Shown here in pieces: positions 11,610 through 64,000 of a DNA stretch of 64,000 nt. The position numbers and the translations under genes are program-made. Origin of the DNA: Isurus oxyrinchus (Eukaryota); contig JANJGN010000012.1 of the NCBI GenBank assembly GCA_026770705.1, positions 128,712,001-128,776,000 of the forward strand, written 5' to 3'. Every line of letters begins with the position of its first letter. Within the stretch, counting starts at the first letter, position 1. The notes beneath the pieces were generated by a model, which saw nothing but the letters and a program-made list of their open reading frames with translations, searched no databases and was not told the DNA's origin.

Positions 11610-11996
11610 AAAGTAGACTTGCATTTGTACAGCAGTTTTCGTGACCACCAGATGTCTCAAAATGCTTCACAGCCAGTGAAGTACTTCTGAACCGTAGCCA
11701 CTATTGTTTTGTGGAAAACGTGGCAGCCAATTTGGGCACAGCAAGCTCCCACAAACAGCAAAGTGATAATGACCAGATAATCTGTTTTTGTAATGTTGTT
11801 TAAGAGATAATCATTGGCCAGGACACCAGGGATCACTTGCCTGCTCTTTTTCAAAATAGTACCACAGGATCTTTTACATTCACCTGAGAGGGCAGACGGG
11901 TCCTCAGTTTAACATCTCATCTGAAAAATGAAACTTCCAATAATGTTGCACTCTGGAACCCATAACATTCTGACTCAGTGTCACCAACTCAGCCAC
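11610..11996 (-). mobile_element. SacSINE1-like Deu-SINE
   Basis: gcacagcaagctcccacaaacagcaa and cttttacattcacctgagagggcagac, antisense to the 9145 copy. Confidence 0.8.
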
Positions 11997-12008
11997 AGCT
12001 GAATCTTT

Positions 12009-14420: not shown

Positions 14421-16554
14421 TGGACTTGATTTTCCAGACAGGTTTCTCATTTGAAACATTGAACTTTATTTACAGGCCGCAGCAGCAGTTACATGCCTCC
14501 AACAAGCTCCACAACTATAAGAACACTCACTCTAAAGTTTCTTGCGCTTAGAGCTGATTTGTTCACACTGTCATGTGAAACTATGCAACACAATAAGTCT
14601 TAAAGCTACAGTCACAATTGCTTAAAGCTACAATTACTACAATTACATAAATAGGAAGGGGCCTGTGCATGGAGAGATTCAAACACACTCACACTTTCCT
14701 GCAGAAGTCATTGTGAAAATTGGGAAGCATGGTTGAATTGTTTTTTCTTTGCCTCAAAAGCAGCAAGGCAAATTGCAGCTATTGTTCCAGCTTATAACCA
14801 CGCAGCCCAACATAGAGATCACTCCCAAACTGGGCGCTGTAGAGAGCCATGTGATAAGGAAACTCAAAACCATCTTTTCAAACAAAATATTTGGAATCTA
14901 TAAATTATTTATAAATACATTACTGTTGCCTCCTGCATGAGGATTTGTCCCTTAGTAATGCATTGTATATATTATAGTGTCATACGTTTTTGACTCTAGT
15001 AAAAGATAGTTGGATCAGTCCGGTTATACACTAGTTGAAAGCAACATGAAAACTTGTGGAGCTTCCTGGGTATCTTGTCCCCTCCACACCAATACATTGT
15101 CTGTCCAGGGGAAAATGCCTGTCTTGCTGTGAGTTGTTTAAATGAAGCTAACAATGTTCCTATCATTGCACTGCCTTGTGTCTCAGAGGGAGGTAACATT
15201 TGGATACAATGAATATCCAGATTGGCCCAGGTCTTAACATAGTCATTGAAGTACCCAGTCTTTAAAACGGGATGCATAACTGGACTCTGTGCTCTTTGAC
15301 CTACAATCTCACATTTACACTGAAAGCTGCTCGAGCACAAACTTCACATTAAAAGTAATCTCTTGTCTCTCCGTTTACATTGCCGAGGGTTTCACCTATC
15401 TTTCTGTTCAAAGCCACTAGTTTGGAAATCATGCTCCTAATAGGCAAAGAAACTTAGTAAAGTAAAATTGAAATGGTGTTCAGAGGTTAACTGGGCTCTT
15501 CCTTTGAAATGGCTCTTTTACAGCTGTGGCAGAACAAGAAGTCTCTTTAGACAAAAGTAGCTGACAACCTATCCCTCTATCTTATGTTATCGTCTCTAAC
15601 TAAATATCTGTAAGCTAGTTCAATTCAACAGGGATGTTCACCTAAATGTCCCCATACAGGAGAGGCCACAACCTGCAGGGTTTGTGACTCTCAGATACAG
15701 AGGAGTTTCTTTTTTGTAAGTCTGGATTGATTGCTTTTGTCTACCATATCTTATTTCTATCTCTGTTGCTTTTCTTTCTTCAGAAGTGCTAAGTTGGATA
15801 GCAGACAGAATTTTTGTGGTTCAGTCTTTCTCTTTCTCATGTGAGTTATTCCATCTGTGTAAACTGCAAGCTGCCTGCCTTTGCACCCATGCTAAGGTAT
15901 ACTTTGGCAAAATAGTCAACCCTTTCATTGCCAAAGCCGTGCCCGTAGGCGACTTGATACGCCTGGTGTTTTTTTCAGTGGCAGACTTTGGAACAGGTCC
16001 AAACAACTGGGTGATCCAGTTTAAGGCTTCTATTGCACGCAGATCCAGACAGCAGTTCAAATTTCAAGCACATATCTCTTGTCCTGCCCTCTTCACCTAG
16101 CTATGAGTGGCTCTTCAGATTCCTGACAAAATGTCTCCAAAATTAAATCTATTTTTTTTAATCAGTCTTGGTGCCAGCCCCTGTCGTGCCTTATGGCAGA
16201 AACAGCTTTATGTCTCCCTGGCACTATAGGGTAAGGGGCAAATGGGGGTAAGAGGTGGTAAAATTGACACTTCGTTAGCCTCCTGCCTCTACAATGTACC
16301 TTCTATTGGCTTAACTTAGAACTGTGATTTGGAAAATCTGGAAGAGTCCATGACCGATTCAACAACCAATGAAAACTTACATGAATCAGGGTCAGCAAAT
16401 GCAGGTAATTCCTAGTTCTCATTATTTATTTTTTTTCTCCAATTAATATGAACAGTTCCCTGCATACAAAGAGATAGGAAACTGGAAAAAATTCACCACC
16501 TATTTCCTTCGTCCTATAAGGAGCAAGCTTGGATGCAATTCAGCACGATTAAAT

Positions 16555-17122
16555 ACAAACATGTGTATTAGGAGCAGGAGTAGGCCATTCAGCCGCTTGA
16601 GTCTGCATTACTTTTTGATAAGATCATAGCTGCTCTGAATGTGGCCTCTAATTGTCTACCCCCATAGCCTTGGACCCCTGTGTTAGTCAAGACTCTATCT
16701 AATTCAGCCTTAAAAATATTCAATGACCCAGCCTCCACTGCTCTCTGGGGAAGTGAATTCCACAGACCAACAATCTTCTGAGAGGAAAAAAAATCCTCAT
16801 CTCCATCTTGAATGGGTGACCCCTTACTTTTAAACTGTGTTCCCTAGTTCTAGTCTCTTCCATAAGGAGAAACACCCTTTCAGCATCCACCCTGTCAAAC
16901 CCTCTCAGGATCTTATAATGTTTCAATAAGAGCACCTCTCATTCTTTTAAACTCCAAAGTATACAGGCCCAACCTGTACAACCATTCCTCATAAGACAAT
17001 CCCTTCACCCCAGGAATCAGTCGAGTGAATGATCTTTGTATTGCTTCCGATGCAATTATATCCTTTCTTAATAGGAAGATCAAAACTGTACACAGAACTC
17101 CAGACGTGATCTCACCAACACT
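16555..17122 (-). mobile_element. HER1-type CR1 LINE 3' fragment
   Basis: ORF remnants RLIPGVKGLSYEE.LYRLGLYTLEFKRMRG and YKILRGFDRVDAERVF. Confidence 0.9.
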
Positions 17123-17236
17123 CAAGAGGCAAAATGATTGGCAAGTAATAAACTTTACCCATGTAATAATGGTCCTTTTACATGAAGGATGCTTTCATTT
17201 GTAATGAGGTGGAACCCTATCTGGAATATCCTAATG

Positions 17237-17818
17237 TTCCAGTGAAGCTCAATGCAAACTGGAGGAACAGCACCCCATCTTCCGACTAGGCACTTTACAG
17301 CCTTCCGGACTGAATATTGAGTTCAACAACTTTAGATCATGAACTCTCTCCTCCTTCCCCACCCCCTTTCCGATCCTCCTTTTTCCAAGAATTTGTATAG
17401 ATTTTTCTTTTCCCACATATTTCCATTATTTTTAAATGTATTTCCATCCATTGTTTTAACTCTACCTTTTAGCTTATTTCGATTCCCCCCCACCTCACCC
17501 GCTCTAGGGCTATTTGTACCTCGCTCGTCTTGCTTTCCATCCTAAATGTCCCATTAGCATATTTCTTAGCTAATATCACCACCATCAACACCTCTTTGTC
17601 CTTTTGTCTGTGACATCTTTTGGCAATCTCCACCTATCACTGGCCCTCTGTCCAGCTCTACCTGTCCCATCCCCCCCTTAAACCAGCTTATATTTCACCT
17701 CTTTTCTATTTTTCCTTAGTTCTGATTAAGAGTCATTCGGACTCGAAACATTAATTATATTCCTCTCCGCGGATGCTGTCAGACCTGCTGAGTTTTTCCA
17801 GGTATTTTTGTTTTTGTT
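17237..17818 (+). mobile_element. Penelope-like element 3' end (GIY-YIG C-terminus plus pLTR)
   Basis: Translates KLEEQHPIFRLGTLQPSGLNIEFNNFRS*; flanked by 15/16 direct repeat ctggaata(t/a)cctaatg (17221-17236, 17819-17834); decayed hammerhead motif at about 17718-17756. Confidence 0.85.
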
Positions 17819-20479
17819 CTGGAATAACCTAATGCCTCAGGTAAGAAATGTAAAACAGGACACTGATTGGCTATCACCAATTATTATCTTCTATGAGTCT
17901 GCTTAGCATTCTCCCAGTATTATGGCTGGGACTGGAAACTCAATGGTGCAGAACACTGAACTTCTCTGCCGATGTCTCCCTGGCACAGCTTGTTGTCCCA
18001 GTATGATGCGCCTCCTTTTCCTTTTTTGATTTTTTTTTGCTTTAAATCAGAAGGTGAGGGCTTTATTAGGGATGCTCACTCCCAGGGTTACCAAGTCCAA
18101 CATTCTATTTGGGCTGAACTACAATCAACAGAAATACAGTGATTATCTTAAAGATGCTTCATCTTCAGCTGAGTGCGTTCATTCAATTCCCGACATTCTC
18201 GATGACTCTTCAAATCTAGCATGCCATGATCATTTTACTCATAGCCAATGATTCAATAACAAAAAGGATGCTGCCCTGAGTAATGATTGTCGCTTCAAAA
18301 ATTCACCAAAATCTTAAGTTAGTTATACCAATAAATAAAAACAACCAATCAGAAGCTTGTAGCCATGATTGGCAGGAATCGATACCATTGAGCAGTAACT
18401 GCAAATATTTCTTAAAGATTTTAACGTTCGGAACTCGGATTGTTGGTCCAGTTGTTTAAACATTGAGTAATAATGTCCTGATCATAATATTTGGAAGATT
18501 TAGCAAGTTGGGGGGATGCATGGGGAGCGGTTCGTTTCATAAGAACACAACTGGAGATGAAGCAGCAGTGGCTGAACAAGTTGTTTATTTTGATATTAGT
18601 CTAACTTCTTCCTTGATTATAAGCTCTTTATGAGTTAGAATATTTACTAATGGACGGAAATACGTATGATATTATTCACTGCTGGAAGTGATATTAAAAT
18701 GGGATCTCTTAAGTTGACAAGAATGGCTGCACTTCCCCCAGTGTGAATTTTTTATTCTAGACAATCATCAAGCTATTTTCCTGGGAACCAACACATCACC
18801 GCCAATTGCAAAGGGAAGGGAAAGCACACACCAGCTTAAAAACAGTTAACCAATTCCAAATGATATAAGATGCTCAGGAAAGGCACAATTGCAAAAACAA
18901 AATGGGGTATGCTATTCAAGCAGCTGAGGGACACTGTTGTGGTGCTATTCTACTGAAGGAAAGTCTAACTTGGCCTGAGGAACAGATTAAAATCTTCCAA
19001 GCTGTGCCTGGAGTCAAAACGTCTACCCCAGAGTCCCAGGTGTCTGGTAAGTTGATATTACAGTCTCTTCTTTCATTCAATTTTCCAGTACAATAAAAGT
19101 AGTTGGAAAAAACACTCCACATAAATATAATATATGCAGATTGCCAAAACTGATCTTTAAAGCCTCAACTAAATGTGCTTAATAATCGTGTACACAAAGG
19201 TCCATATTTGCAATGTGCTTACTTCTGCACATTTCTTTCAACATGGCATCTGTGACTGTCTGCCTCCAGTTGTACAGTGCATAGGTAATGTGCACATTGT
19301 TGATTCCATCTCCCAAGCCAAGTCACCTTTCCACTCGGTTCCATCAATTTCAGAGGCCAGTACTATTCTGGAATTAAAGTCAACTTGGCAGGAGTCATTG
19401 GCTGAGCCAGAGATCTCTACTAAGTGTAATTTCCCTAAGGGAAGAAGGTGGAGAGTGTTAAGCACGAGGGCGGATTCAAGGTCAGAAGTGATGATCCACT
19501 AACAGCCTATCTTAAGTGTTTCTTGCCATGCGCATCAGAGAAACACTAAGTACTCAGCACACCATTCCTGGCTTTTCTTTGTTCTTTCATGCAATGTGGG
19601 AGTATTGCCCATCCTTAATTGCCCTTGGGAAAGGGGTTTGGGCCACCTTCTTGAAGCACTGTAATCGATGTAGTGTAGGTACACCCGCAGGTTTTCAATG
19701 GTTGCTATGGGTTATGAGGGTAGAGGGAGGGGCAATTTTTAAAATTCAGCTAGTACTACTGGCCATAAAATGGTACTGCAGGGACTGCATCCATTTGTCC
19801 CTCCAATATCTGAGGGGATGACCCAAAGGCATCAGAACACCATTACATCCTGCCAAAGTTGTTTAGATTATTAAATGACACTGGCTCTGGGAAATTAAGC
19901 AAGATCAGGAGTGTGGGCATGAGATGGAATGAAGTCCAGCTACATCAACATTACAACCGACTAGAAGTTCTGCCCCTGTCCCATTATCTGGCAAGAATGC
20001 TGTCCTTTTAATGTTGGTAGCAGGGTTTAAGTTCAACACTTGCTAGCAGATTGAAAATCTTGCCTTTCAAAGAGCTCTTAGGTCCTAACTGAAGTGAACT
20101 TAAGTAGTCAAATCCTACTTGCTAATGATCTTGACTACACGTTATATTGGCACTAAAGAGTATCAAATAACATCTTACCCGAGAGTTAAAGGATGCCTTT
20201 TGTAAGAAGAAAGACGTGTCTTTCACATCCTCAGGATGTTTGAAAGTATGTTGTAATGAAGGGTATAAGAGCAGCTATTTGCACATACTAGGGACCCACA
20301 AATACTAATCAGATAAATGACCAGATCATCTGTCTTAGTGATAGCCAGGTAAATATCAGCCCAAAACTTCAGAAGAACTCCCTTGGTCTACTTTGGATAG
20401 TGCCATGTGATCATTTATGCTCATTCGAGAGGACAGACAGAGAAAGAAAGAAATAGGTGCAGCTATCGATCGGAACCTC

Positions 20480-21180
20480 AGGGCATTCCAAAGCAGTTTA
20501 CAGCTAATGATGCACTTTTGAAGTAAGTTTAATGTAATATAGAAAACAGGGCAGCCAATTTGTGCATATAGCAAAATCTCACCAACCACAATGAGATAAT
20601 GATCAGATTGTCCTTTTAATAGATGTTTGTTAAGGGATAAATAATGTCCAGGACATGGGGGGAGAACTCCCCTCCTCTTCTTTGTATAGCACCATGGAAT
20701 CTTCTATGTACACCTCTTGAGGACAGATGGGACTTTTCTTAACATCTTATCCAAAAGATTACCCGCTCTGTGTAAGGATTGTCTGACATGTTGCTACTCA
20801 CCCAGCAAATCAGCCAAAAAACTGCTATAACAATTTGTTTTTTATCAATGGAATCTACACTTTTTTTTAAATTCACTCATGGGATGTGGATGTCACTGGT
20901 TAGGCCAACATTTATTGCCCATCCCTAATTGAGAAGGTGGTGGTGAGCTGTCTTTGTGAACCGCTGCAGTCCATGTGATGGGAGTACATTCACAGTGTTG
21001 TTAAGGAGGGAGTTCCAGGACTTTAACCCAAAATAAGTATGCTATCCAAGTTAGCACCTCCAACAGTGCAGCATTCCTTCAGAGCTACGCCGAAATATCA
21101 GCTTATATTTTGTGCTCAAATTCTGGTCTTGAATCCACAACCTCTGATTCAAAGGCATGAGTGCTACCCACTAAGCCAAA
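20480..21180 (-). mobile_element. SacSINE1-like SINE interrupted by a family-B LINE tail (about 20865-21030)
   Basis: SINE tail 20480-20760 and head 21050-21180 flank ttcactcatgggatgtgg...ggagttccagga. Confidence 0.65.
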
Positions 21181-23025: not shown

Positions 23026-23489
23026 AAAGTCCGCTTTCTCTTGTGTTGTGATGTGGAATAAAAGGGAAGACTTGCCTTTATACAGTGTCTTTCATAACCT
23101 AAGGATGTCCCAAAGTACATTATAGCAAATGAAGTATTTTTGAGGTGTAGTCACTGTGCTAATGTAGGAAATGTGGCAGCCAATTTGTGCAGAACAAGAT
23201 CCAACAAACAGCAATGCTGTGTTGGTTGAGAGATGAAAATTGGGTAAAAATTATAGCACGGAAATATTTCTTTCACCAATGTAGCTGGTGGAAGGTGTTA
23301 AGTCTTTATTCAGTTTCAGAACAAATATCGCTATTGAGCACAGACAAGTGATGTGTGGCTTTCCACACCATTGTAATCAATATTTCCTGAAGCATTTACT
23401 AGAAGTCCCAATTCTGTCATTTTTTGGGGTAACTTGACCAACCGATATAAAAAATATTTATTTCCTAGAAACAATGAGCAGGGATATGG

Positions 23490-23710: not shown

Positions 23711-24624
23711 TAATTAATTTCAACACATACATTTTCAATCCTTCAGAAATACATATCTTCCTGAGACACCAAAAGTCTTTTTTTCAACTCATATAAAGTA
23801 TGCTAAAAATGTTGCTCTTACCAATCCAACCATAGTACAGCAAAAGGCCTGTTATCCATCACAACCCATTCACAGTATGAGGATATACATATACAGCCCT
23901 TATCATTCTACCTGCACAGTGTAACAAAGTATGCTGATGGTATTGGGTTTTCCAGTTACACAGGGCAGGTCCCGATGTTATTGAACAACAGACAAGACAA
24001 TATCAATTTTGTGGCACTGCATAAATACAGAACTTCACTGATGTTGAGCTACTTAATAAACCACGATCACAGCTGTGATTGATTTAAATGTCCACTAAGC
24101 AACATTGCTTAAGTTAATTCTTTCCCAGCCCTACCTGAAGTAATGTAATAGCAACTAAACTGTCATTTTCCAAGATTTCTGCACCTACCCTTTTTTAAAG
24201 TTATGTCAAAAAAGACAGGAAGATCCTCTGACAAGCATTTATTGGAATGGATGGCATGTTCAATTCGCAAATTGTTCTTCCACATCTGGCACTTGGACTG
24301 GCAGTCAACCCAAACTGATGAGCTGAAAATCTCACTCTGATGTAAAGAGGTTATGCAGTCTCAATCCTCAGACAGATCTATCACTCCATCACCAAGCTGC
24401 TTTCTCAAAGATGGATGGTGTGGGAAATGACGAAAGTACTTGTATGATTGGGGTTAAGGACCATTGTTGGTCAGGCATATAGATCCATCTAACTGCCATC
24501 TAAATCCCTGTATCTAGGTATGAAAGGACTTCAAGGTTGTCAAGATTAATAGACAGGTGATTAAAGGGCCCATTGTCCTGGTTTATCGTGTGTTGAATGT
24601 CACTTGTGTTAATAATAATAATAC

Positions 24625-24860
24625 CGCAGAGGGCTGTAGAGGCTGGGTCGTTAAGTATATTCAAGGCTGAGATAGACAGATTTTCAATCAGTAAGGGAAC
24701 CAAGGCTGAGATAGACAGATTTTCAATCAGTAAGGGAATCAAGGGTTATGGGGAAAAGGCAGGAAAGTGGAGTTGAGGATTATCAGATCAGCCATGATCT
24801 CATTGAATGGCGGAGCAGACTCGATGGGCTGAATGGCCTACTTCTGCTCCTATGTCTTAT
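24625..24860 (+). mobile_element. CR1 3' tail with internal 39-bp tandem duplication
   Basis: caaggctgagatagacagattttcaatcagtaagggaa(c/t) twice at 24662-24739; tail gactcgatgggctgaatggcctacttctgctcct. Confidence 0.85.
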
Positions 24861-31712: not shown

Positions 31713-32056
31713 GTATTGTTCTTGAATTTCCAGTTGAATTGTGCAAGTGCAAATTTGTACAAAGAAGCACCTTAGGTACAGTGAAATAAATAAAGATCAT
31801 TTTAAATTAATGTTACTTCTTCAGCATCAAACGTCCATGGGTTTTCTAATGTCATTAGGTTCAAGGTTTTGGTACCGCTGCTACTCACTTAGAGAAAATC
31901 TCTTTTAAAAATTGCCTAGCCTGAATGTTAATGTCTATTTTGCTTTCATTTTTTAAAAACATGCTGATAATATCTTTGCTTGAATAGCTTATTCTCTATT
32001 CCTTATTATACATTAGTAGAAAGAGGCAGCAACATTAACAGGAATATATATTTCGT

Positions 32057-32294
32057 AACAAAAACAGAATTACCTGGAAAAACTCAGCAGGTCTGGCAGC
32101 ATCGATGGAGAAGAAAAGAGTTGACGTTTCGAGTCCTCATGACCTTTCGACAGAACTCCGTTCTGTCGAAAGGTCATGAGGACTCGAAACGTCAACTCTT
32201 TTCTTCTCCATCGATGCTGCCAGACCTGCTGAGTTTTTCTAGGTAATTCTGTTTTTGTTTTGGATTTCCAGCATCCGCAGTTTTTTGTTTTTAT
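32057..32294. mobile_element. Fold-back Penelope pLTR mini-element
   Basis: Inverted arms 32057-32156 and 32160-32259 (99/100 match, 3-nt loop), 35-nt T-rich tail, 14-bp TSD atatatatttcgta (32044-32057, 32295-32308). Confidence 0.9.
32160..32196 (+). ncRNA. Minimal type-I hammerhead ribozyme motif (variant core), mirrored on minus strand at 32120-32156
   Basis: gtt-CTGTCGA-a-aggtc-atgag-gactc-GAAAC-GTC-aac: stem I gtt/aac, stem II, GAAA, GUC site; the core has U at position 6. Confidence 0.6.
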
Positions 32295-32699
32295 ATATAT
32301 ATTTCGTACTCTGCACTGATACACAATCCAAATGTATAAGCAATGATAGGGCATTACACACCTTACTTTACACTGAAATTCAATCCCAGAATTAGCTGGA
32401 GAGAGACACTCCTTATTCTGTATTGGTACAAGTCCCAGATTTATGACGTGCGTAATATGCTACTTATTATAATCCGATTTTTCAGGAGTGCAACTCCTTT
32501 TTATTCCAGATCAGTATCCTCAGGGTTATCAGGAATGTAACATACTCCCTACTCTGTACGGAGTATGGAAAAATTATTTCTCATGTTCACTCTTGATATA
32601 GCCGAGAATATTTTTACAAGCCAAGTAATCCTTGTGCAGAAGCAAGGAAATTCTGCTAAACAGTCATAAATCATTGGTTAGGCCTCAGCCTAGTGAAGG

Positions 32700-39351: not shown

Positions 39352-39672
39352 ACTCACTCACTTTTCCAGAACCACTTTATCCAATTCAGGGTCAGGGGAA
39401 GTTGGAGCCTACCCCAACAGGCAATGGGCACAGTACACCCAGGACTGGATGCCAGTCCTCACAGGACACAGACAAAGGGTAAATTATTACTCATAGCCAA
39501 TCCATGTAATCGGCACATCTTTGGACAGTGGGAGGAAACCAGGGCATCCAGTGGAAACCAACGCAGACACAGGGGGAACATGCAAATGCCACACAGACAG
39601 ACACCTGAAGTCAGAATCGAACCCAGGTCCCTGGAGTTGTGAGGCAGCGGCACTAACCACTGTGCTTCCATA
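39352..39672 (-). mobile_element. V-SINE (tRNA head plus V domain) with teleost-like tail
   Basis: A box gcacagtggttag, B box ggttcgattct, V domain tgtgtggcatttgcatgttccccctgtgtctgcgttggtttcc...ccaaagatgtg; tail ...gaccctgaattggataagtggtt...gagtgag. Confidence 0.85.
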
Positions 39673-40747: not shown

Positions 40748-43737
40748 TAGTGGACTAGTAATTCAGAGTCCCAGGGTAATGCTCTGGGGACAGGGGTTCA
40801 AATCCTGTCATGGCAAATGGTGAAATTGGAATTCAATAAAAATCTGGAATTAAAAGTCTAATGATGACCATGAAACCATTGTCGATTGTTCTATATAAAA
40901 ACCTGTCTGGTTCACTAATGCCCTTCAGGAAAGAAAATCTGTTGTCCTTACCTACCTGGTCTGACTTACATGTGCTCCCCACAGCAATGTGGTTGACTCT
41001 TAAATGCCCTCTGAAATCATCTAGCAAGCAACTCAGTTGTACCAAACTGCTTCAAAGTCTCAAAAAAGGAATGAAACTGGACAGATGACCCAGCACCGGA
41101 AACGACAACAGCAAACTCAGCTCTGTTGATCCTGCAAAGTCCTCCTTACTAACATCTGGGGGCTGGTGCTAAAACTGGGAGAGCTGTCTCACAGACTCGT
41201 CAAGCAAAGCCTGACATAGTCATCCTCACGGAATCATACCTTACAGATAATGTCCCAGACACCACCATCACCGTCCCTGTCCCACCAGCAGGACAGACCC
41301 AGCAGAGGTGGAGGCACAGTGGTACACAGTCAGGAGGGAGTTGTCCTGAGAGTCCACCACATTGACTCTGGACCCCATGATGTCTCATGGCATCAGGTCA
41401 AACATGGGCAAGGAAACCTCCGGCTTATTACCATGTACTGCTCTCCCACAGCTGATGAATCCGTGCTCCTCCATGTTGAACACCGCTTGGAGGAAGTACT
41501 GAGGGCGGCAAGGACGCAGAATGTACTCTGGTGGGGGACTTCCATGTATATCACCAAGAGTGGCTCGGTAGCACCACTACTTGCTGAGTCCAAAAGGACA
41601 TAGCTGCTAGACTGGGTCTGCGGCAGGTGGTGAGGGAACCAACAAGTGGGAAAAACAACTCAAGACTGGGCACCCATGAGGCTTTGTGGGCCATTAGCGG
41701 CAGCAGAATTGTGCTCGAAAACAATCTCGCCTGGCATATCTCTCCCATCACCATCAAGCCAGAGAATCAACCCTGGTTCAATGAAGAGTGCAGGAGGGTA
41801 TGGAAGGCGCAACACCAGGCATGACTAAAAATGAGGCGTAAACCTGTTGAAGCTACAAAATAGGACCACTTGCATGCCAAACAGCATAAGCAGCAAGTGA
41901 CAGAGCTAAGCAATCCCACAACCAATGGATCAGATCTAAACTCTGCAGTCCTGCCACATCCAGTCGTGAATGGTGATGGACAATTAAACAACTCACTGCA
42001 GGAGGAGGCTCTACAAATATCCCCATCCTCAATGATGGGGAACTCAGCACATCAGTGCAAGAGATAAGGCTGAAGCATTTGCCACAATCTTCAGTCAGAA
42101 GTACCTCATGGATGGTCCATCTCAGCCTCCATCAGAGGTCCCCAGCATCATAGGTGCCAGTCTCCAGCCAATTCCAGCCATGTGATATCAAGAAATGGCT
42201 GAAGGCACTGGATACTGCAAAGGCTATGGGCCCTGACAATATTCTGGCAATGGACTGAAGACTTCTGCTCCAGAACTTGCTGGACCCCTAGCCAAGCTGT
42301 TCCAGTACAGCTGTAACATTGGCATCTACCCGGTAATATGGAAAGTTATGTCCTGTACACAAAAAGCAGGGCAAATCCAACCCGGCCAGTTACCACCCCA
42401 TCAGTCTACTCTCCATCATCAGTAAATAATGGAAGGGGTCATCAACAGAGCTATCAAGCAGGACTTGCTTAGCAATAACCTGCTCACTGACACTACATTC
42501 GGGTGCCGCCAGGGCCACTCAGCTCCTGACCTCATAGCAGCCTTGGTTCAAACATGGATGAAAGAGCTGAACTCCCGAGCTGAGGTGAGATTGACTGCCC
42601 TTGACATCAAGGCCGAGTGTGGCATCAAGGAGCCCTAGCAAAACTGGAGTCAATGGGAATCAGGGGGAAATTTCTCCACTGATTGAGTCATACCTAGCAC
42701 AAAGGAATATGGTTGTGGTTGTTGGAGGTCAATCATCTCAGCTCCAGGACATCACTGCAGGAGTTCCTCAGGGTAGTGAGCTCAGCCCAGCCAACTTCAG
42801 TTGCTTCAATGACCTTCCTTCCATCATAAGGTCAAAAAGGGGAATGTTCGTTGATGATTGCACAATGGTCAGCACCATTCGTGACTCCTCAGATACTGAA
42901 GCAGTCCATGTCCAAATGCAGCAAGACCTGGACAGTATCCAGGCTTGGGCTGACAAGTAGCAAGTAGCATTCACACCACACAAGTGCCAGATAATGACCA
43001 TCTCCAAAAGGGGTAATCTAACTATTGCCCCTTGACATTCATTTGCATTACCATAACTGAATCCCCCACTATCAACATCCAGGGGGCTACCATTGACCAG
43101 AACGTGAACTGGACTAACCATATAAATACAAGACCAGGTCAAGAGGCTATGGATCCTGTGATGGGTAACTCACCTCCTGACTCCCCAAAACCTGTCCACG
43201 ATCTACAAGGAACAAATTAGGAGTGTGATGGAATACTCCCCACTTGTCTGGAAGAGTGCAGCTCCCACAACTCTCAAGGAGCTTGACACCATCCAGGTCA
43301 AAGCAGCCCACTTGATTGGCACCCCAAGCACAAACATTCACTCCCTCCACCACCGATGCACAGTAGCAGCAGTGTGTACCATCTACAAGATGCACTGCAG
43401 GAATTCTCTAAGGCTCCTTCGACAATACGTTCCAAACCCACAACCACTACCATCTAGAAGGACAAGAGCAGCAGACAGATGGAACACCACCACCTGCAAG
43501 TTCCTCACCAAGTCACTCACCATCCTGACTTGGAAATATATCGCCGTTCCTTCAGTGTCGCTGGGGCAAAATCCTGGAACCCCCTTCTTGACAGCACTGT
43601 GGGTGTCCCTACACCACATGGACTGCAGCAGTTCACAAAGGCAGCTCATCACCATCTTCTCAAGGGCAACTAGGGATGGGCAATAAATGCTGGTCCAGCC
43701 AGCAAAGCCCACATCCCGTGAATGAATAAAAAATAAA
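40748..43737 (+). mobile_element. Near-full-length CR1/L2-group LINE (family B): tRNA-like head, APE endonuclease and RT pseudogene
   Basis: B box ggttcaaatcc at 40795-40805; NIWGL, PDIVILTESYL, GGGTVV (APE); KAMGPD, ALDIKA, GVPQGS, FVDD (RT); tail cacatcccgtgaatgaataaaa. Many stops, frameshifts and internal deletions. Confidence 0.9.
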
Positions 43738-46774: not shown

Positions 46775-47540
46775 TTTTGGTAGCAAAAACAGGAAGGCAG
46801 ATCATTATCTGAATGGCTATAAATTGAGACAGGAGAATGTGCAACTAGACCTGGGTGTCCTTGTACACCAGTCACTGAAGGTAAGCATGCAGGTACAGCA
46901 GGCGGTAAAGAAGGCAAATGGTATGTTGGCCTTCATAGCTAGAGGATTCGTGTACAGGAACAGGGATGTCTTGCTGCAATTGTACAGGGCCTTGGTGAGA
47001 CCACACCTGGAATATTGTGTGCCGTTTTGGTCTCCTTATTTGGGGAAGGATGTTCTTGCTGTAGAGGGAGTGCAGCGAAGGTTTACCCAACTGATTCCTG
47101 GGATAGCGGGACTGACATATGAGGAGAGATTGTGTTGATAAGGATTATATTCGCTGGAGTTCAGAAGAATGAGGGGGGATCTCATAGAAACCTATAAAAT
47201 TCTAACAGGACTAGAAAGGGTAGATGCAGGAAGGATATTCCCGATGGTGGGGGAGTCCAGAACCAGGGGTCACAGTCTGAGGATATGGGGTGGACCATTT
47301 AGGACTGAGATGAGGAGAAATTTCTTCACCCAGAGAGTGGTGAGCCTGTGGAATTCATTACACAGAAAGTAGTTGAGACCAAAACATTGTAGCTCTTGGG
47401 TGAAAGGGATCAAAGGATATGGAGAGAAAGTGGGAGCAGTCTATTGAATTGGATGATCAGCCATGTTCATAATGAACGGTGGAGCAGGCTTGAAGGGCTG
47501 AATGGCCTACTCCTGCTCCCAATTTTTATGTTTCTATATT
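46775..47540 (+). mobile_element. HER1-type CR1 LINE 3' fragment
   Basis: QQAVKKANGMLAFIARG..LYRALVRPHLEYCV.FWSPYL; MRGDLIETYKIL. Confidence 0.95.
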
Positions 47541-50312: not shown

Positions 50313-51327
50313 AAGATAAAAGCGAAATACTGTGGATGCTGGAAAGCTAGTCCACTGGACCAGAGTGGACCCTGGTCCACTCCTCCATCACCCCCAATGC
50401 CTCAACCCTCTCCCACGGCACCTTCCCATGCAATTGCAGAAGGTGCAACACCTGCCCCTTTACTTCCCCCCTCCTCACTGTCCAAGGGCCCAAACACACC
50501 TTTCAAGTGAAGCAGCGCATCACTTGCGCTTCCCTCAATTTAGTCTACTGCTGCTCCCAATGCGGTTTCCTCTACATTAGAGAGACCAAACGCAGACTGG
50601 GTGGCCACTTTGCGGAACACCTTCGATCTGTCCGCAAGCATGACGCATGCCTTCCTTGCCATTTCAACACACCACCCTGCTCTCATGCCCACAACGCAGG
50701 CCTGCCGCATTGTTCCAGTGAAGATCAACGCAAACTGGAGGAACAGCACCTCATCTTCCGATTAGGCATTTTACAGCCTTCCGGACTTAACATTGAGTTC
50801 AACAGTTTCAGATCATGAACTCTCTCCTCCATCCTCATCCCTTATTGATCCCTTTTTTTCAAATATTTATTTTTAAATTTTTATATATATTTTTTCCCAC
50901 CTATTTCTATTATTATTATTTTTAAAATTTATTTCCATTCATTGTTTTATCCCCACCTTTTAGCCTATTTTGATCCTTTCGCCCACACCGTCCCCTGCCC
51001 CCACCCCACCCCCAGTAGGGCCATCTGTCATTTGTTCATCCTGCTTTCTACTCTTAATGTCACCATTAGCACCTCCTTTAGCCAGTATCACCACCATCAA
51101 CACCACTTCGACCTTTTGTTTATGACATTTTTTGTAATCTCCCCTTTGCCTCCACCTATCACTGGCCCTCTATCCAGCTCCACCTGTTCCACCCCCCTTA
51201 AACAGTATATATTTCACCACATTTTTACTGCTCTTTAGTTCTGAAGAAGACTCATACGGATTCGAAACGTTAAGTCTTTTTATCTCCACAGATGCTGCAA
51301 GACCTGCTGAGTTTTTCCAGCAATTTT
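50313..51327 (+). mobile_element. 5'-truncated Penelope-like element with GIY-YIG endonuclease remnant
   Basis: ORF 50507-50818 NLVYC..CSQCGFLYIRETKRRL..HFAEH...RKLEEQHLIFRLG; inverted pLTR tip at the 5' end; 14-bp TSD tatttcattgcctt (50299-50312, 51328-51341). Confidence 0.9.
51237..51276 (+). ncRNA. Minimal hammerhead ribozyme motif in PLE pLTR (canonical core)
   Basis: agtt-CTGAAGA-agactcatacggattc-GAAAC-GTT-aagt, palindromic AACGTT stem III; stems partly mutated. Confidence 0.55.
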
Positions 51328-51949
51328 TATTTCATTGCCTTGATCATTCTCTTAGACAAAGATTATCTCGAGATTAGAAAATGAAACAGTGCCTAACCAC
51401 AGATCTTATCTAAATCATTACTGCTGCTCACTGCACATTTTTTAACTAGTGCGTACTGCAATTAATATTCCTTCGTGCTTTTTTGAGTCATCTCTGAGTC
51501 AACAAGTAATCTAGTTTGGATTCCCTTGTCAAGACTAATCAAGAATGTTTGCATGTCAGTTCACAGGCAAATATTAGAAAGGGTGATCTATATTTGATGT
51601 AATGTCTTGAATCAGGATGGTTTATTTTCCAGAATGGAATCATTCGTATAATATAATCATGAAAAAATTCAAATTGGTTAAAGTAAAACATTTCGACTGC
51701 AACATTGCTTATTGGGCTAAGCTATCCACGTAACACAAGGGACCAAGCTGATCCCTAAACTTAGCTGTACAAACTATAGAATAATATGGATAAATCAGAC
51801 CCCAACAGGAACAAATAAGGCAGAAATGATAATAATAAGAAATTCTGTTGCAATTTCAGGCATTTACGTTAATTTTAACATTCCTTTCTATTTTTAAAAA
51901 TTATATATTTTCCCTACATATTGAGATGTTGAGCCAATCAGCTTCTGCC

Positions 51950-53977: not shown

Positions 53978-54894
53978 CTGGAAAACAAACTGTTCAACTT
54001 GGAATAAAAGCCCTGATACTGAGAAGCCCATTGCAAACCACTGATAAGATCATTTCATTTTCAAGGCTAACTGTTCTAAACAACTCAGTTAGTCACCATG
54101 AATTTCCACTTTGCTTGGAATTAGATTCTAATTCAGAATTAGATAAACAAAATACAACAGCAAAAAAGAAAAATCCAATTATCTCCACTGCGTGTACGAA
54201 GATGCTGATTCATAAATGCGTAATATTCCATGGGCACTTCAGACTTTTTTCTATTTGTTCATTAAATGTGAACATCCCTGGTAAGACCAGCATTTATTGC
54301 CCATATCTAATTGGTACCTCAACAAAATAGCTATTCTCCAAGAGTGAATTTGGACAGTGAAGCTATCGTAACATAGTGCACCCCAACCCTGTCCTTCTTC
54401 CAAGCTCATCTTTCTTCAGGAATGGCTAGAGAGTGATGAGCAATTGGCTTGATTTTGAAGTCAATTGTAGGACCACTCTTGTGCCAACAACTTGATGGAT
54501 GAAATCTGGAATCTTCGTGATCTGGAGGTATCAATACTACACCAGGCTGCAGCTGCTAACCAGTTTCATTTTTACCACTACTGATATGAAGTTTTACACA
54601 CCATTTACTGACATATGCAAAGGTGGCCACAAAGATCCACAGGCCCTGAATGCTTATCACCTGAATGGTGGAAACTCCTCCACACCACAGTTAAGCTACT
54701 CCCCCATAATGGAGTGGGAGGAGCAGGAAAATCTGTGGCCAATGACAGGAAATGAAAATCATCAAAATATCTGCCACTTCCAAAGGCAACCTGGCAGACT
54801 CTGAGAGGTCATGGCTACTCATGATACATCGCTAGGCAGAGACAACTAATACACACATATGCTTCTTGTCTGGATAATTCTGGCAACAATCTGA

Positions 54895-55605: not shown

Positions 55606-57399
55606 ATAATTCTGTTCCATGACTTTTTTTTAATTTCTTGGTTCACGGGATGTGAGCATCACTGGCTAGGTCAGCATTTATTGTTCATCCCAAATTGCCC
55701 TTAAGAAGGTGGTGGTGCGCTGCCTTCTTGAACTGCTGCAGTCCATGTGGTATAGGTGCTGCTAGGGAGGGAGTTCCAGGATTTTGACCAGGTGACAGTG
55801 AAGGAACGGTGATATATTTCCAACTCAGGATGATGTGTGACCTGGAGAGGAACTTACAGGTGCAGTTGTTCCCACAGCATCTTCGGCCCTTGTCTTTTCA
55901 GGTGGTAGATGCTGTGGGTTTGGAAGGTGCTGTTGGAGATGTCTTGCTGCAGAGCATATTGTAGATGATACACAATGCTGCCACTTTGCATCAGTGATGG
56001 AGCGAGTGAACGCTTAAGGTGCTGGGTGTAGTTCCAATCCAGCGAATTGCTTTCTTGAGGCTCTTGAGTGTTGTTGGAGCTGCATTCATCCAGGCAAGTG
56101 AAGAGTTTTCCATCACACTCCTGACCTGTGCATGACAAATGGTGGGCAGGCTTTGGCAAGTCAGAAGGTGAGTTACTCACTGCAGAATTTCCAGCCTCTG
56201 ACCCACTCTTATAGCCACAGTATTTAAATGGTTAGTCCAGTTTAGTTTCCAGTCAATGGTAACCCCCAGGATGTTGATAGTATGGGTTTCAGCAATGGTA
56301 ATGCCATTGAATGTCAAGGGGAGATGGTTTGATTCTGTTTTGTTGGAGATGGTCATTGCTTGACACTTGTGTGGCATGAATGTTACTTGCCACTTATCAG
56401 CCGTTCAGGTCTTCTTGCATTGGATGTAGACTGCTTCAGTATCTGAGATGTTGTGAATGGTGCTGAACATTGTGTAATCAGCAAGTATCTCCATATCTGA
56501 TATTGTGATGGAGGGAAGGTCATTGATGAAGCAGCTGAAGATGATTTGGCCTAGGGTACTACCCTGAACAACTGTAACAATGTCCTGGGACTGAGATGAT
56601 TGACCTCCAGTAACCACAACCATCTTCTTTTGTGCTAGGTATAATTCCAACCAGTGGAGAGTTTTCCCCCGATTCCCATTAACTTCAGTTTTGCTAAGGC
56701 TGCTTGATGCCACACTCGGTCAAAGGCTGCCTTCATGTCAAGGGCAGTCAATCTCACCTCACCTCTTGAGTTCCATGTTTGAACCAAGTGAGGTCAGGGG
56801 CTGAGTGGCCTTGGCGGAACCTAAAGCATAAGTGAGTAGGTTATTGCTGAGTAAGTGCCACTATATAGCACTGTCAACGACCCCTTCCATCACGTGGCCG
56901 AGTTGACTTTGTCCTGCTTTTTGAGGATAGGACAAACCTTGGCAATTTTCCACATTGTCAGATAGATGCCAATGTTGTATCTGTACTGGAACAGCTTGGC
57001 TAGAGATATAGCTAGTTCTGGAGAACAAGTCTTCAGTACTATTCCTGGAATATTGTCACAGCCTATAGCCTTTGCAGTATCCAGTGCCTTCAGCCCTTTC
57101 TTGATATCACATGGAGTGAATCGAATTGGCTGAAGACTGGAATCTGTGATGCTGAGGACCTCAGGAGGGGGCCATGATGAATCGTCCACTCAGCACTTCT
57201 GGCTGCAGGTGGTTGCAAATCTTTCAGCCTTATCTTTTGCACTGATGTACTGGGCTCCCGCATCATTAAGGTTGGGAATATTTGTGGAGCCTTCTTCTCC
57301 AGTGAGTTGTTTAATTGTCCGCCAATATTCACAACTGGATGTGGCAGGACTGCAGAGCTTAGATCTGATCTGTTGGTTGTGGGATCACTTAGCTCTGAC

Positions 57400-57752
57400 T
57401 AGTCATTTGAAAGTACAGAACTTGAATAGAGCTAAACATTTTGTCGAAGATTTTTGTCTTGCACTCATCAGGGCAATCGCAAGAATACCAATGTCAGTGG
57501 AAGCAACAACATTATACGGTATGAGAAGAGAGTACTGATTGGTTGGCAAGCGGACTCTGATTGGTAGAGGCATTGCCATACAGATGTCTCCAGGTCAACA
57601 CCTCCACCAATCAGCGTCCATCTGTCAACCATTCAGCACTCTCTTCTCATATCGTATAAAGTTGTTGCTTCCACTAACATCGGTATTCTAGCGATTGTCC
57701 TGATGAATGCAAGGTGAAAAGCTTTGACAAAATGTATTTTTTCAGCATTATG
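57400..57752. mobile_element. Fold-back PLE pLTR mini-element, second family
   Basis: About 142-bp inverted arms 57436-57577 and 57593-57735; hammerhead motif in each arm; tctgact repeated at both junctions. Confidence 0.85.
57695..57730 (+). ncRNA. Minimal hammerhead ribozyme motif (mirror copy on minus strand at 57441-57476)
   Basis: ttgtc-CTGATGA-atgcaaggt-GAAA-agct-tt-gacaa; consensus of four arms ttgtc CTGATGA gtgcaagac GAAA agct TC gacaa. Confidence 0.6.
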
Positions 57753-57998
57753 TCTGACTGTCGTATGCAGCTTCTGCTGTTTGGCATGCAAGTAGTCCTT
57801 GTATTGTCAGTTCACCAGTTTGACACCTCATTTTTAGGTATGCCTGGTGCTGCTCCTAGCATACCTTCCTGTGTTCTTCATTGAACCAAGGTTTATCCCT
57901 GACTTGATGGTAATGCTAGAGTAGGGCATATGCTGAGCCATGAGATTACAGATTGTGGTTGACTACAGTTCTGCTGCTGCTGATAACCCAAAGTGTCA

Positions 57999-58294: not shown

Positions 58295-59342
58295 TTAAAA
58301 AAAATTCATTTATGGGATATAGGCTTCTCTGGCCAGGCCAGCATTTATTGCCCATCACATAAACAGAATTACTTGGAAAAACTCAGCAGGTCTGGCAGCA
58401 TCAACTAGTTCTGTTGAAGGGTCATGAGGACTCAAAACGTCAACTCTTTTCTTCTCCGCCGATGCAGCCAGACCTGCTAAGTTTTTCCAGGTAATTCTGT
58501 TTTTGTTTTGGATTTCCAGCATCCGCAGTTTTTTTGTTTTTATCTTTATTGCCCATCCCGAGTTGTCCTTGAGAAGGTGGTGGTGAGCTGCCTTCTTGAA
58601 CAGCTGCAGTCCATGTGGTGTAGGTACACCCATAGTGCTGTTAGGAAGTGAGTTCCAGGATTTTCACCCAGCGACAGTGAAGGAAAGGCATTATATTTCA
58701 AAGTCAGGATGGTGAGTGACTTGGAGGGGACCTTTCAGGTGGTGATGTTCCCATCTATCTGCTGCCCTTCTAAATGGTAGTGGTCTGTCCTGCTGGTGGA
58801 ACAGGATACACAGGGATGATGATGGTGGTGTGTAAAGTATTATTCGTTGAGTATGACTATGTCAGACCATTGTTTGACCAGTCTGTGAAACAGCTCTCCC
58901 GGCCTTGTCACAAGGAGGATTTTGCAGAGTTGATAGGGTGGAAAGTGCAATTATCATTTCCGTACCAAGGTTAAAACCAGGTGGTCTGTCCAATTTCATT
59001 CCTTTTTGGCAGTTTGATACAAGTGAGTGGCTTCCAGGTCATTTCAGAGGTTCTGGAGTAACGTGTAGACCAGATGAAGTAAGGACAGCAGATTTCCTTC
59101 CCGAAAGTGAATTAATGAACCACAGATGGGTTTTTACAACAATGGTTTCATGGTCACTATTACCAAGACTGGCTGGCTTTGTGATTCAGATTTTTTAAAA
59201 AATATATTAATTGCATTTAAATTCTATCAGCTGCTGTGGTAGGATTTGAACTTATGCCCCCCCCAGAACATTAGTTCTAGCCCTAGCCCAAGCCTCTGGG
59301 TTACTAGTCCAGTGACATTATCACTACACCAACACTTCCCCC
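58295..59342 (-). mobile_element. Family-B element: tRNA-like head, partial APE and 3' tail (internally deleted or composite)
   Basis: A box tggtgtagtgat (59331-59320), B box gttcaaatcct (59251-59241); APE remnant near 58780-58900 abuts the LINE tail at about 58775. Confidence 0.75.
58357..58544. mobile_element. Fold-back PLE mini-element (32057 family), left arm shortened
   Basis: Same sequence as 32057-32294; 13-bp TSD tttattgcccatc (58344-58356, 58545-58557). Confidence 0.9.
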
Positions 59343-60029: not shown

Positions 60030-60588
60030 ACTAGTTAGACCACACCTAGAATACTATGAACAGTTTTGGTCCCCTTATCTAAGGAAAGATATACTGGCAT
60101 TGGAGGTAGTCCAGAGAAGATTCATTAGGTTGATCCCGGGTGGGGAGGGATTATTTTATAGGGAGAAGTTGAGTAGGTTGGACCTGTACTCATTGGAGTT
60201 TAGAAGAATGAGAGGCGATCTTAATGAAGCATATAAGATTTTTAAGGGGCTTTACAGGGCAGATGCTGAGAGGTCGCTTCCCCTTGTGGGAGAGTCTAGG
60301 ACTAGAGGGCATAATGTCAGAGTAAGGAATCACCCATTTAAAACAGAGATAAGGAGGAATTTCTTCTCTCAGAGGGTAGTGAGTCTGTGAAATTCTTTGC
60401 TGCAGAGGATTGTAGAGGCTGGGTCATTAAGCATTAATCAGTAAGGGAATCAAGGGTTATGGGGAAAAGGACGGAAAGTGGAGTTGAGGATTATCAGATC
60501 AGCCATGATCTCATTGAATGGTGGAGAAGACTCGATGGGCCGTATTCCCTACTTCTGCTCCTACGTCTTGTTGTCTTATGGTCTTATA
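60030..60588 (+). mobile_element. HER1-type CR1 3' fragment
   Basis: VQRRFIRLIPG..LYSLEFRRMRGDL; tail gtcttatggtcttat. Confidence 0.9.
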
Positions 60589-61075: not shown

Positions 61076-61371
61076 TGTAAAGGGTTAATATCAGAAGCAC
61101 CTGATGCTGATGTAACTTGATACAATGTCACATGACAAAGTAACAGAGGTCTGGAGGGAAGGAGAAATCTAACTTCGTGTAGAATTATTCAAATGTACAT
61201 GGTTAAATAAATAACTAGATAAATTAATAATACTGATATTGTGAACTACAGCCTTAAGCAGTTTTCTTAGAGAAACAGTCAAGCCCCAAAGATCCCCATG
61301 TAGACACCAAACACAAGACGAAACATTGTTAGCAGTGGACAAGCGAGTAAAAGACCCAAGAAAAAATATTT

Positions 61372-61741
61372 TGTTTATTATTCATTCATGGAATGTGGAC
61401 ATCGGTGCCTAGGCCAGCATTTATTTCCCATCCCTAATTGCCCTTACTTGGGGGGTATTTAAAAGTCAACCACATTGCTGTGGGTCTGGAGTCACATGTA
61501 AGCCAGACCAGACAAGGGTATCAGATTTCCTTCTCTAAAGGGACTTTAGTGAACCATCTGGGTTTTTATGACAATCAGCAATGGTTTCATGGTCATCATC
61601 AAACTTTTAATTCCAGATTTGTTTTATTGGTTCAAATTTCACCATCTGCTGTGGTGGGATTCAAATCGGGGTCCCCAGAGCATTGACCTGGGTCTCTGGG
61701 ATACTAGTCCAGTGACAATACCATGCACCACGGCCACCCCT
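61372..61741 (-). mobile_element. Bipartite SINE-like derivative of family-B LINE (5' head joined to 3' tail)
   Basis: 61741-61450 matches 40750-41010; 61447-61375 matches the last about 70 nt of the LINE (aagggcaattagggatggg...ccatgaatgaat). Confidence 0.85.
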
Positions 61742-62941
61742 AGACCTGACAGATCCACAGATCCTTGGAAGAAGGATAAAAAAGAAAATTGATTGAAGAC
61801 TGACCTGAAAACTCAGAGCATCATGGATGCAGCAGATGCAAGCTGAGACACAGACCCAGAGTTCAGATAGCAGTGGCATAGATCAGAATCTACAATCCAA
61901 ACTATTGAAACAGTAACAGATCTAAAGATTAGGACAATCATGGTGTCTACACTGGCACTCCCAGAACCATTCCAAAGAACTGAAGTCTCACAATAGGCTC
62001 AACTCTGGGACAATGGGGGAAAGAGGTTTTCCAAGAGGATCAGGTCAGTACTTTACTATATGCTGTTGGAGCAATTGCTGATTATGTAATAGCAAGACTC
62101 AGAGTCAATGAGGCTTCCAGCCCTTATGATAAGTCCTCCAGGCATTCAATTCATACTTCAGCATTTGAAAAAAATGTAATAATTGAACAAGCAAAATTTA
62201 ATAAGTTTAAATGAAAACTTGGCGAATGCATGGATTCATTCATTAGTGACCTATGTAGGCTAGCAGAAAATTGTAACTACAGGATCCTGAGGGATGAATT
62301 AATATGCAATCACATAGTAGATAGGATCCTGGATTAAACTCTTTCAGATCTAACTCTTACTAAGGCAATACAAATCGCGCGACAGACCAAGCTCACAAAG
62401 CAAAATAGAAAGGTTATTCATGGAGAAAGCGATATCCATTAAAAACGAGTGAGGCTGAAAAGAAAAAGTGCATTAATTCAGAAGCCTGTGAAATTGGAGA
62501 AAGCATACCCACTGCCATCTTGGAATGCTCCCGGTGTGGCAGGAAAACACTGCACAAGTGGAAAGAATGCCCAGCAGGGGGAGCCACAACTGTGTAAATT
62601 TAGGACACTATAAAATTATCTGCTGATCTAAAACACAAGTAGCCCACAAGAAAAAAGAGGCAATAACAAGGCCAAACCAAACACAAGAAGTGGAAGAGCT
62701 ACAAAAAAAAACCTAAATAACCTTCCAAAGGGGAACTAATGAAACAGAAAATAATGACTGCAGCATTAAACTAAAAGTGGACAGACACGCTACAGGGTTT
62801 AAATTAGATACAGGCACAGCTGTTTCAGTCTTATCTGATGAAGCAAAGTGGCTTAAATATATCATCTATCTAGTTACAACGTCCAGGAGGGACTTCACCC
62901 AAAGTCATCGATCAACAATTGGCAAGATTAAGATATAACTA

Positions 62942-63445
62942 TAGAACCAAAGAAAAGTTACAGCGCAGAAAGAGGCCATTCAGCCATCCTGTCTGTGCCC
63001 ACCAAAAAAGAGTAAAAAAAGGAATTAGGTGCTCATTTTAACCCCACTTTCCAGCACCTGGTCTGTCGCCTTGCAGTTTACAGCATTTCAGGTGCAGATC
63101 CAGGTGCCTTTTAAATCAGTTGAGTGTTTCAGCCTCAACCACCAATTCAGGCAGTCAATTCCAGATGCCCACCACCCTCTGGGTGAAAAGTTTTTCTTCA
63201 CGCCCCCTCTAATCCTTCTACCAATCACCTTAAATCAATGCCCCCTGGTAATTGGCCCCTTAGCTAGGAGAAACAGGTCTTTCTTGTTTCCCCTATCTAG
63301 GCTTCTCATAATTTTGTACACCTTAATTAAGTCACCCTTCAGCTCCTCTGTTCTAAGGAAAGCAACTCCAGCCTATCCAATCTATCCTCATGGTTGCAAT
63401 TTTCAAGCCTTGGCAATATTTTTTATAAATTTCCTCTGTACTTTC
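62942..63445 (-). mobile_element. CR1 3' fragment nested in Gypsy pol
   Basis: gaggccattcagcc...ccagatgcccaccaccctctgggtgaaaa...ataattttgtacaccttaattaagtcaccc. Confidence 0.85.
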
Positions 63446-64000
63446 TTATCTTTGCATCCATTAAGATCATTGAACTTAATTGGATGTCATACAGAAGCAA
63501 AAGTCATCATTATTAAGCAGGAAAGCATGCTTACAATTGAGGCTGATCTATAAGGTTGATGAAACTGCTGATAAGCAGTCCAATAACATATTAAGGAATG
63601 AATTCCCAACATTATTTTCAGGCTTAGGAAAGCTGAGGACAGAATATCATGTAACCCCACAAGTTGATGCTTATCCAATTTGCCTCTTTACACAGAGGAA
63701 AGCCCCTCACCCACTCTTAGACAAAGTCAAGAGCAAGGCTGAACACATGTTATTGCAGGGCGTTATCTCTCCAGTAAACATACCAACAGAGTGGTGTTTT
63801 GTAATTGTCACAGTACCAAAGCCTAATGGTTCAATTCAATTGAATTGACTTGGCACAACTAAATAAATCAGTGGAACGTGAGATCCACCCAGAGACATCA
63901 GTGGATGGAGGTCTTGCCAAATTAGCAACAGGTACCCCATTCACCAAAGTAGAATCAAACAATGGGCTTTGGCAGTTGCTGCTTGACAAAGAATCCAGAT

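Follow-up and report, generated by a model that had tools for sequence, protein, structure and literature searches.

A protein-coding Zenon LINE with a tRNA-like head at its 5′ end in Isurus oxyrinchus and other elasmobranchs

By the textbook division, LINEs are protein-coding elements transcribed by RNA polymerase II (Pol II) and SINEs are non-coding elements transcribed by RNA polymerase III (Pol III). Small non-coding repeats are normally the only carriers of a tRNA-like head, and Pol III is not the usual polymerase of a protein-coding RNA. The closest described relatives of the element reported here are the Zenon LINEs, which are present in elasmobranchs, coelacanth and hagfish, lack ORF1 everywhere and carry a poly-A tail (PMC13343379). 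In particular, the elasmobranch Zenons in the main text and supplement of that paper (CarCar, ScyCan, RhiTyp, HypSab and SquAca; Stuart et al. 2026, PMC13343379) belong to the same family as our element, are about 3.2–3.3 kb long and have an A-rich end. The head that we analyze is visible in those published sequences; the main text contains no occurrence of the words tRNA, promoter or polymerase, and leaves undescribed the head, the depletion of TTT, the AUG that is out of frame and the existence of short forms. The openly available literature, that is, outside Repbase, Dfam and the subscription journals, yielded no description of a tRNA-headed shark LINE. Both the family and the absence of ORF1 from it have already been published, and the anatomy given below is, as judged from the sequence, firm.

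Several other systems share single traits with this element. RTE-1_DAn and related elements (Kojima 2018, PMC5786205) are LINEs with tRNA-like sequence and provide a precedent in a coding LINE, but they belong to the RTE clade, and the passage describing them, on which our comparison is based, is silent on the position and function of the tRNA-like part. Bipartite non-autonomous LINEs and SINEs (RIME, NARTc, the Vingi derivatives and Bov-A/Bov-tA; PMC5786205) likewise include short forms in which the 5′ and 3′ ends of a LINE are joined. In these the tRNA head has been added to the short form, and LINE 5′ parts that serve as SINE bodies are reported in that source only for RTE and Vingi; in Zenon, by contrast, the coding parent itself bears the head, and it belongs to the CR1 group. 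Finally, the TRIMp3 elements Cassandra, Helenus and Ajax (Kojima 2024, PMC10886601) are non-SINE retroelements with a Pol III promoter derived from a small RNA, but all of them are non-coding LTR elements of 311–1263 bp.

The window analyzed here is a stretch of 64,000 nucleotides of I. oxyrinchus DNA, to which all positions refer. It contains a decayed, near full-length LINE copy on the forward strand that has an APE-RT coding region and no ORF1 (40751–43737, below called the 40.7 kb copy), and comparison of the window with itself gives 12 more pieces of this family, mostly 3′ fragments. The relevant features are the following.

40751..40815, + strand: tRNA-like head, truncated at its 5′ end and without an A box, with a remnant like an anticodon arm, an extra hairpin and a B box at 40795–40805.
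40816..41038, + strand: body, common to the full-length and short forms; the short forms exit at about 41015 or at 41038.
41071..41073, + strand: AUG, kept in six of the seven elasmobranch Zenon consensuses and here out of the APE-RT frame.
41151..41650, + strand: APE endonuclease region, frameshifted, with NIWGL at its start.
42337..43145, + strand: reverse transcriptase (RT) region with stops and frameshifts, located by a PF00078 profile match and by tblastn of RT homologues.
43662..43737, + strand: 3′ tail with the last codons, a stop at 43671–43673, a stem-loop, AATAAA motifs and a short A-rich end; the short forms have the same tail.
55634..57921, − strand: second long copy, 5′-truncated, 74.5% identical over 1877 columns and interrupted by another repeat.
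58304..59340, − strand: older copy (59.3 kb) with an A box at 59321–59331, a B box at 59242–59252, the APE start, a deletion of about 2.1 kb and a split tail.
61366..61740, − strand: SINE-sized form (61.7 kb) made of head, body and LINE 3′ tail.

The 40.7 kb copy is assigned to Zenon (CR1 group) by the identity of its 5′ end to published consensuses; against CarCar_Zenon-1, aligned there by eye, it has about 34 differences in 345 aligned bases and five gaps, or about 90% identity. As in other Zenons, the APE and RT belong to one ORF, the frames of which are broken in this copy, and the A-rich 3′ end (43726–43737) corresponds to the poly-A tail of the family. The RT region is matched by PF00078 at 42595–42957 (E = 1.1e-05), the only meaningful profile match among 11 stretches, and contains the motifs PQGS at 42766 and VDD at 42850. 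The APE label comes through two close homologous proteins, P0001 and P0013, which match PF03372 weakly (E = 0.0014 and 0.091); the match of P0013 starts with its NIW motif, which falls on profile position 4. At the end of the endonuclease region, neither an LDL nor an SDH motif was found. A word-indexed protein search with the APE stretch gave no match, full-length protein relatives were looked for in vain, nothing meaningful came from sequence searches of the PDB, and a 20-base APE pattern occurs at no viral, one metagenome and two prokaryote loci, none of them similar to the window by blastn. The stem-loop of the 3′ tail folds with z = −1.96, 6 of 200 shuffles being as good. There are at least 30 stops in each of the three frames between 41100 and 43700, so this copy is dead; relative to the published elasmobranch Zenons it is also about 300 bases shorter and lacks the A box. 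Near 41655–41700, about 270 bases of the end of the endonuclease region are apparently missing relative to the published consensus.

From its first aligned base (40751) to the NIWGL codons at 41151 the 40.7 kb copy measures 400 bases, within the 330–400 bp estimated in the preliminary description of this DNA, which had held that this leaves no room for ORF1. We agree: the longest stop-free stretch in 40751–41151 is 82 codons, no Pfam match was obtained in the 400 bases before NIWGL, and the flank is at single-copy depth. The lack of ORF1 is, however, no special feature of this element, as it is stated for all Zenon elements (PMC13343379).

The first 260–290 bases, comprising head and body, are present three times in the window, at 40.7, 59.3 and 61.7 kb, and in the first two copies they are followed, as had been reported, by APE-coding DNA; P0013 and P0001 match both. 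The 59.3 kb copy is an internal-deletion derivative of about 1 kb and not a full element; beyond the APE start it skips about 2.1 kb and resumes in the 3′ part, with a microhomology of 3 bases. The 61.7 kb copy passes directly from the body to the LINE 3′ tail and is thus a SINE-sized form. Splicing was considered as the origin of the short form, given the GT with which the LINE goes on at 41039, and was set aside, there being no AG in front of the tail joint. None of the three heads was found to have a target-site duplication. Elsewhere in the window, a Zenon-type 3′ tail lies at 54252–54313 (−), upstream of which blastn finds no head or body matching the family. The tail of the 59.3 kb copy contains a palindromic repeat (58352–58511) with 51-base arms that are 88% complementary; it has relatives at 17235–17827, 32049–32300 and 50711–51332, with a head-to-head form at 32.05–32.3 kb, and its structure presumably resembles Penelope-type inverted ends.

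Is the head the true 5′ end of the family? The preliminary description argued from three occurrences that it is not a chance SINE insertion, and material from outside the window is in accord with this. We compared the first 400 bases of the Zenon consensuses that Supplementary Table 2 of PMC13343379 gives: all seven elasmobranch consensuses (five species, one of them a ray) start with the head, carry the body and cross the same junction, as against none of the three from hagfish and coelacanth. The published consensuses were built outwards from RT-domain seeds (PMC13343379), so the head came with RT-bearing copies. Contigs were compared from 6 of 24 listed runs. Those from two DNA runs of two organisms, at 80% likeness, give depths of 0–31 in the five bins of flanking DNA, and each of the 25 bins of the element exceeds 130,000, these being summed depths and not copy numbers. 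An A-box-bearing stretch extends the element upstream of 40751 in 758 contigs, and at the other end an A-rich loose-end consensus stands behind 43733 in 1233 and 1422 contigs. Among the best-supported 24 of 932 upstream-pointing loose ends there is no foreign sequence, and small deletions in the window copy account for them.

The short forms are visible in the same material. Their joints, from about 41015 to 43661–43671, are present in all four contig runs, and a junction-only comparison of the two DNA runs finds exits from the body at 41015 and about 41038, with 458–665 contigs per loose end. Full-length continuation is found as well: just past the branch point, positions 41042 and 41052 are covered by more than 120 contigs per DNA run, and the branch at 41038 is bridged by 3 of the 32 pieces listed, with at least 31 bases on each side. 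The whale-shark predicted protein P0013 also runs from the peptide of the body into NIW. The contigs, including those of runs guessed to be RNA (X15 and X17), contain the element and are uninformative on start, strand, cap and level; run X20, recorded as a coral metatranscriptome, has 5% of the stretch's words and carries no evidential weight. Among the copies, consensuses and loose ends compared, we found none that extends upstream into an ORF1 or a Pol II UTR, and no head-to-APE junction that differs between copies. Together, the consensuses and the contigs of two organisms support the tRNA-like head as the 5′ end of a family of single-ORF LINEs.

The tRNA likeness of this 5′ end, with an A box at 59.3 kb that is decayed at 61.7 kb, was also part of the preliminary description, and the boxes are as it gave them. 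The B box at 40795–40805 is the sole zero-mismatch case among 13 matches to a generic B-box pattern (at most one mismatch) in the window, and an A-box-like 11-mer lies at 59321–59331 (−), with a decayed counterpart in the 61.7 kb copy. The 40.7 kb head itself, however, is short by about 27 bases at its 5′ end, where the other copies carry the A box, and strict ARAGORN and Rfam scans called none of the three window heads, which are decayed and have an extra hairpin, a tRNA. Relaxed ARAGORN is uninformative, as the threshold that brings up two of the three heads yields 186 calls across the window, and folding of the single decayed heads is mixed (z = 0.5, −2.68 and −1.43). Within the window, the likeness to tRNA is one of box motifs and stem-loops.

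The elasmobranch consensuses, inspected by eye in the supplement of PMC13343379, give a more complete picture of the head. The A box follows TRGCNTAGTGG in all seven; the B box begins with GGTTC in three and AGTTC in three, and is one base short in the remaining one. Between the boxes lie a five-pair stem with a 7-base loop and a second hairpin, which explains why tRNA finders fail on the head. In the dogfish consensuses the second hairpin nearly copies the first (a 21-base duplication), and relative to dogfish the galeomorph consensuses have two of its pairs changed on both sides. These two-sided changes suggest selection on RNA structure and do not identify the polymerase.

Sharks have SINEs of similar design, SacSINE1 (a Deu-SINE) and HE1 (a V-SINE), which likewise combine a tRNA-type head, a body and a LINE-derived tail in the same host group. 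The Zenon body differs in lacking the published Deu and V core motifs, which other repeats of the window do have (at 11.9 and 39.6 kb). Thus, an identification of the body as the V domain of HE1 was rejected, as it is unlike the V consensus in the supplement of PMC6887750, and the V motif matches the window only at 39573–39590 and none of the three heads. A Deu domain as in SacSINE1 was rejected likewise: the body is unlike the AmnSINE1/EbuSINE Deu core in the supplement of PMC7245038, and two Deu core motifs have no match in the three heads and one match in another repeat (11906–11922). The short form is therefore probably neither HE1 nor SacSINE1, as compared through the published V and Deu cores and not through the consensuses of those SINEs. 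As the body matches neither known shark SINE core domain, the "SINE-LINE chimera" of the preliminary description, correct in placing a tRNA-like head on a coding LINE, is only one of two possible histories: a LINE may have captured a SINE, or a tRNA may have fused to the LINE's own leader. We also note two further kinds of SINE in the window. A separate old family with a body like the Deu core lies at 11620–12000 (−), 9150–9500 (+), 20500–20800 (−) and 23070–23215 (−) and is likely of SacSINE1 type, and a V-domain SINE at 39360–39670 (−), with a B box at 39613–39623, is likely of HE1 type.

A depletion of sense-strand T runs, proposed in the preliminary description as a check, is found for TTT, but the absence of TTTT (T4) is not significant against dinucleotide shuffles. 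Sense-strand T4 is absent from 2983 bases of the 40.7 kb copy and from 1928 bases of the second long copy, and among 490 stretches compared on either strand only two are free of T4, both on this element. The corresponding probabilities are 0.007 and 0.017 against mononucleotide shuffles and 0.15 and 0.07 against dinucleotide shuffles, and six small family fragments, pooled, show no depletion (3 T4 versus 3.2 expected). TTT, on the other hand, occurs four times on the sense strand of the 40.7 kb copy versus 14.3 expected (0 of 1000 dinucleotide shuffles) and seven times in the second long copy versus 15.8 expected (1 of 1000); the two copies are related, so these tests are not independent. It is the most depleted of the 64 trinucleotides in both; AAA is not depleted, and CCC is slightly low in the second long copy (46 of 1000). 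The control elements, short at 1.6–1.7 kb and consisting of CR1 tails and a gypsy-like fragment, with no head-less Zenon ORF among them, show no depletion of TTT (35 versus 37.8 and 35 versus 38.9, respectively). The bias in Phe codons is not significant (5 TTT, 15 TTC; Fisher P = 0.33), and the same is true of codon-level tests. In the 400-base starts of the published consensuses, read by eye, T4 is found in none of the seven headed elasmobranch Zenons versus all three head-less ones (PMC13343379).

Two further retroelements of the window served in these comparisons or have normal T-run content. The composition control at 62300–64000 (+) is a decayed stretch, presumably, from its motifs, the start of a gypsy-type gag-protease-RT region. 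The 3′ fragments of another LINE family, presumably CR1-like by its motifs, lie at 60034–60561 (+), 46995–47519 (+), 16553–17118 (−) and 24624–24858, and their T-run content is normal.

How the enzyme would be translated is less straightforward. Its frame has a stop at 41022–41024 and then an open, basic stretch up to NIWGL, a stop at 41127 being private to the 40.7 kb copy. Between body and NIWGL this frame contains no AUG except one created by a substitution private to the same copy. The AUG at 41071 is out of frame with NIWGL both in the 40.7 kb copy and in the ray consensus, and the A-rich linker that precedes it varies in length among the consensuses. The two frames are joined in P0013 and in one gapped dogfish consensus, so some published consensuses may contain a frame error. 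The enzyme would presumably be reached through a −1 shift or begin at a codon other than AUG. Few of the published Zenon copies have an intact ORF (3 of 612, 0 of 2313 and 1 of 294; PMC13343379).

The best explanation of the whole, in our view, is that active Zenon is transcribed from its head by Pol III, for which we would give somewhat better than even odds. As in type 2 Pol III genes, A and B boxes are present at the 5′ end of all seven consensuses (the B box strict in three), and both long copies are free of internal runs of four or more T, an absence that is not significant by itself. TFIIIC would bind the two boxes, and Pol III would encounter no T4 terminator in the roughly 3.3 kb that it transcribes. 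The resulting RNA would lack both a normal cap and an AUG in frame ahead of the endonuclease; its translation would begin at a codon other than AUG, or at the conserved AUG upstream with a −1 shift into the enzyme frame. Through target-primed reverse transcription starting at the 3′ stem-loop, the enzyme would then copy the RNA that encodes it. With the promoter inside the element, a ready-made SINE would result from any internal deletion, and the 1 kb and 370 bp forms fit this. In a human cell assay, RNAs made by Pol III need no ORF1p (PMC2666806), which fits the ORF1-less Zenon loosely, head-less Zenons being without ORF1 as well. The reported size of Pol III RNAs of mobile elements, limited to about 100–1300 bases (PMC10886601), counts against Pol III, and the AATAAA motifs and poly-A end fit Pol II also. 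Our full reading joins these parts: an autonomous coding retrotransposon that exists as an uncapped 3.3 kb Pol III RNA, with the head as promoter and structured leader, an enzyme made by −1 shift or non-AUG start, and deletions that yield SINEs in one step, all kept since the common ancestor of sharks and rays. We regard it as tentative, with a probability of roughly 0.35.

The same anatomy might instead belong to an element whose full-length RNA is a Pol II product, started at a promoter within the body or read through from host genes, the head being kept as an RNA structure or only for the short Pol III forms. We find this possible, if doubtful. It agrees with the description of LINEs as Pol II transcripts and of Pol III as weakly processive (PMC5786205, PMC10886601), with the AATAAA motifs and poly-A tail, with the departure of the B box from strict GGTTC in four of seven consensuses (by eye), and with the compensated hairpin, a sign of RNA-level selection that is silent on the polymerase. 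It agrees poorly with a TTT depletion that is specific to T and to the sense strand across the coding region and absent in two other retroelements of the window, and with the ends of all seven consensuses, which lie no more than a few bases from the tRNA-like 5′ end, as a transcription start at that place would predict.

A passenger role of the headed element, with a long Pol III RNA from which the ORF is not translated and which is copied in trans by the enzyme of another LINE, seems improbable, even though the only in-frame AUG between body and NIWGL is a private substitution, the conserved AUG is out of frame and intact ORFs are as rare as noted above. In the published families the RT is covered to 92–100% and the endonuclease to 76–99%, with more than 84% identity among five species (PMC13343379), which implies long selection on the protein, and there is no head-less elasmobranch Zenon among the seven consensuses. 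That the head is a SINE inserted before truncated copies, or arose as an artefact when the consensuses were built, and the true element is longer with an ORF1 or ordinary 5′ UTR, is very unlikely: SINE-sized forms are indeed abundant (the 41015 joints in four runs, the many contigs per loose end) and the upstream check covered the best-supported 24 of 932 loose ends, but the junction recurs in two window copies, in bridging contigs of other copies, in P0013 and in all seven RT-seeded consensuses, and ORF1 is absent from all Zenon elements (PMC13343379).

The Zenon family is very abundant in sharks and rays and has published consensuses. If transcription from the head by Pol III is correct, this abundant coding LINE would provide a natural example of a long Pol III RNA that is translated. 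The loss of ORF1 would then be linked to the polymerase used, and a route from LINE to SINE in one step would be shown.
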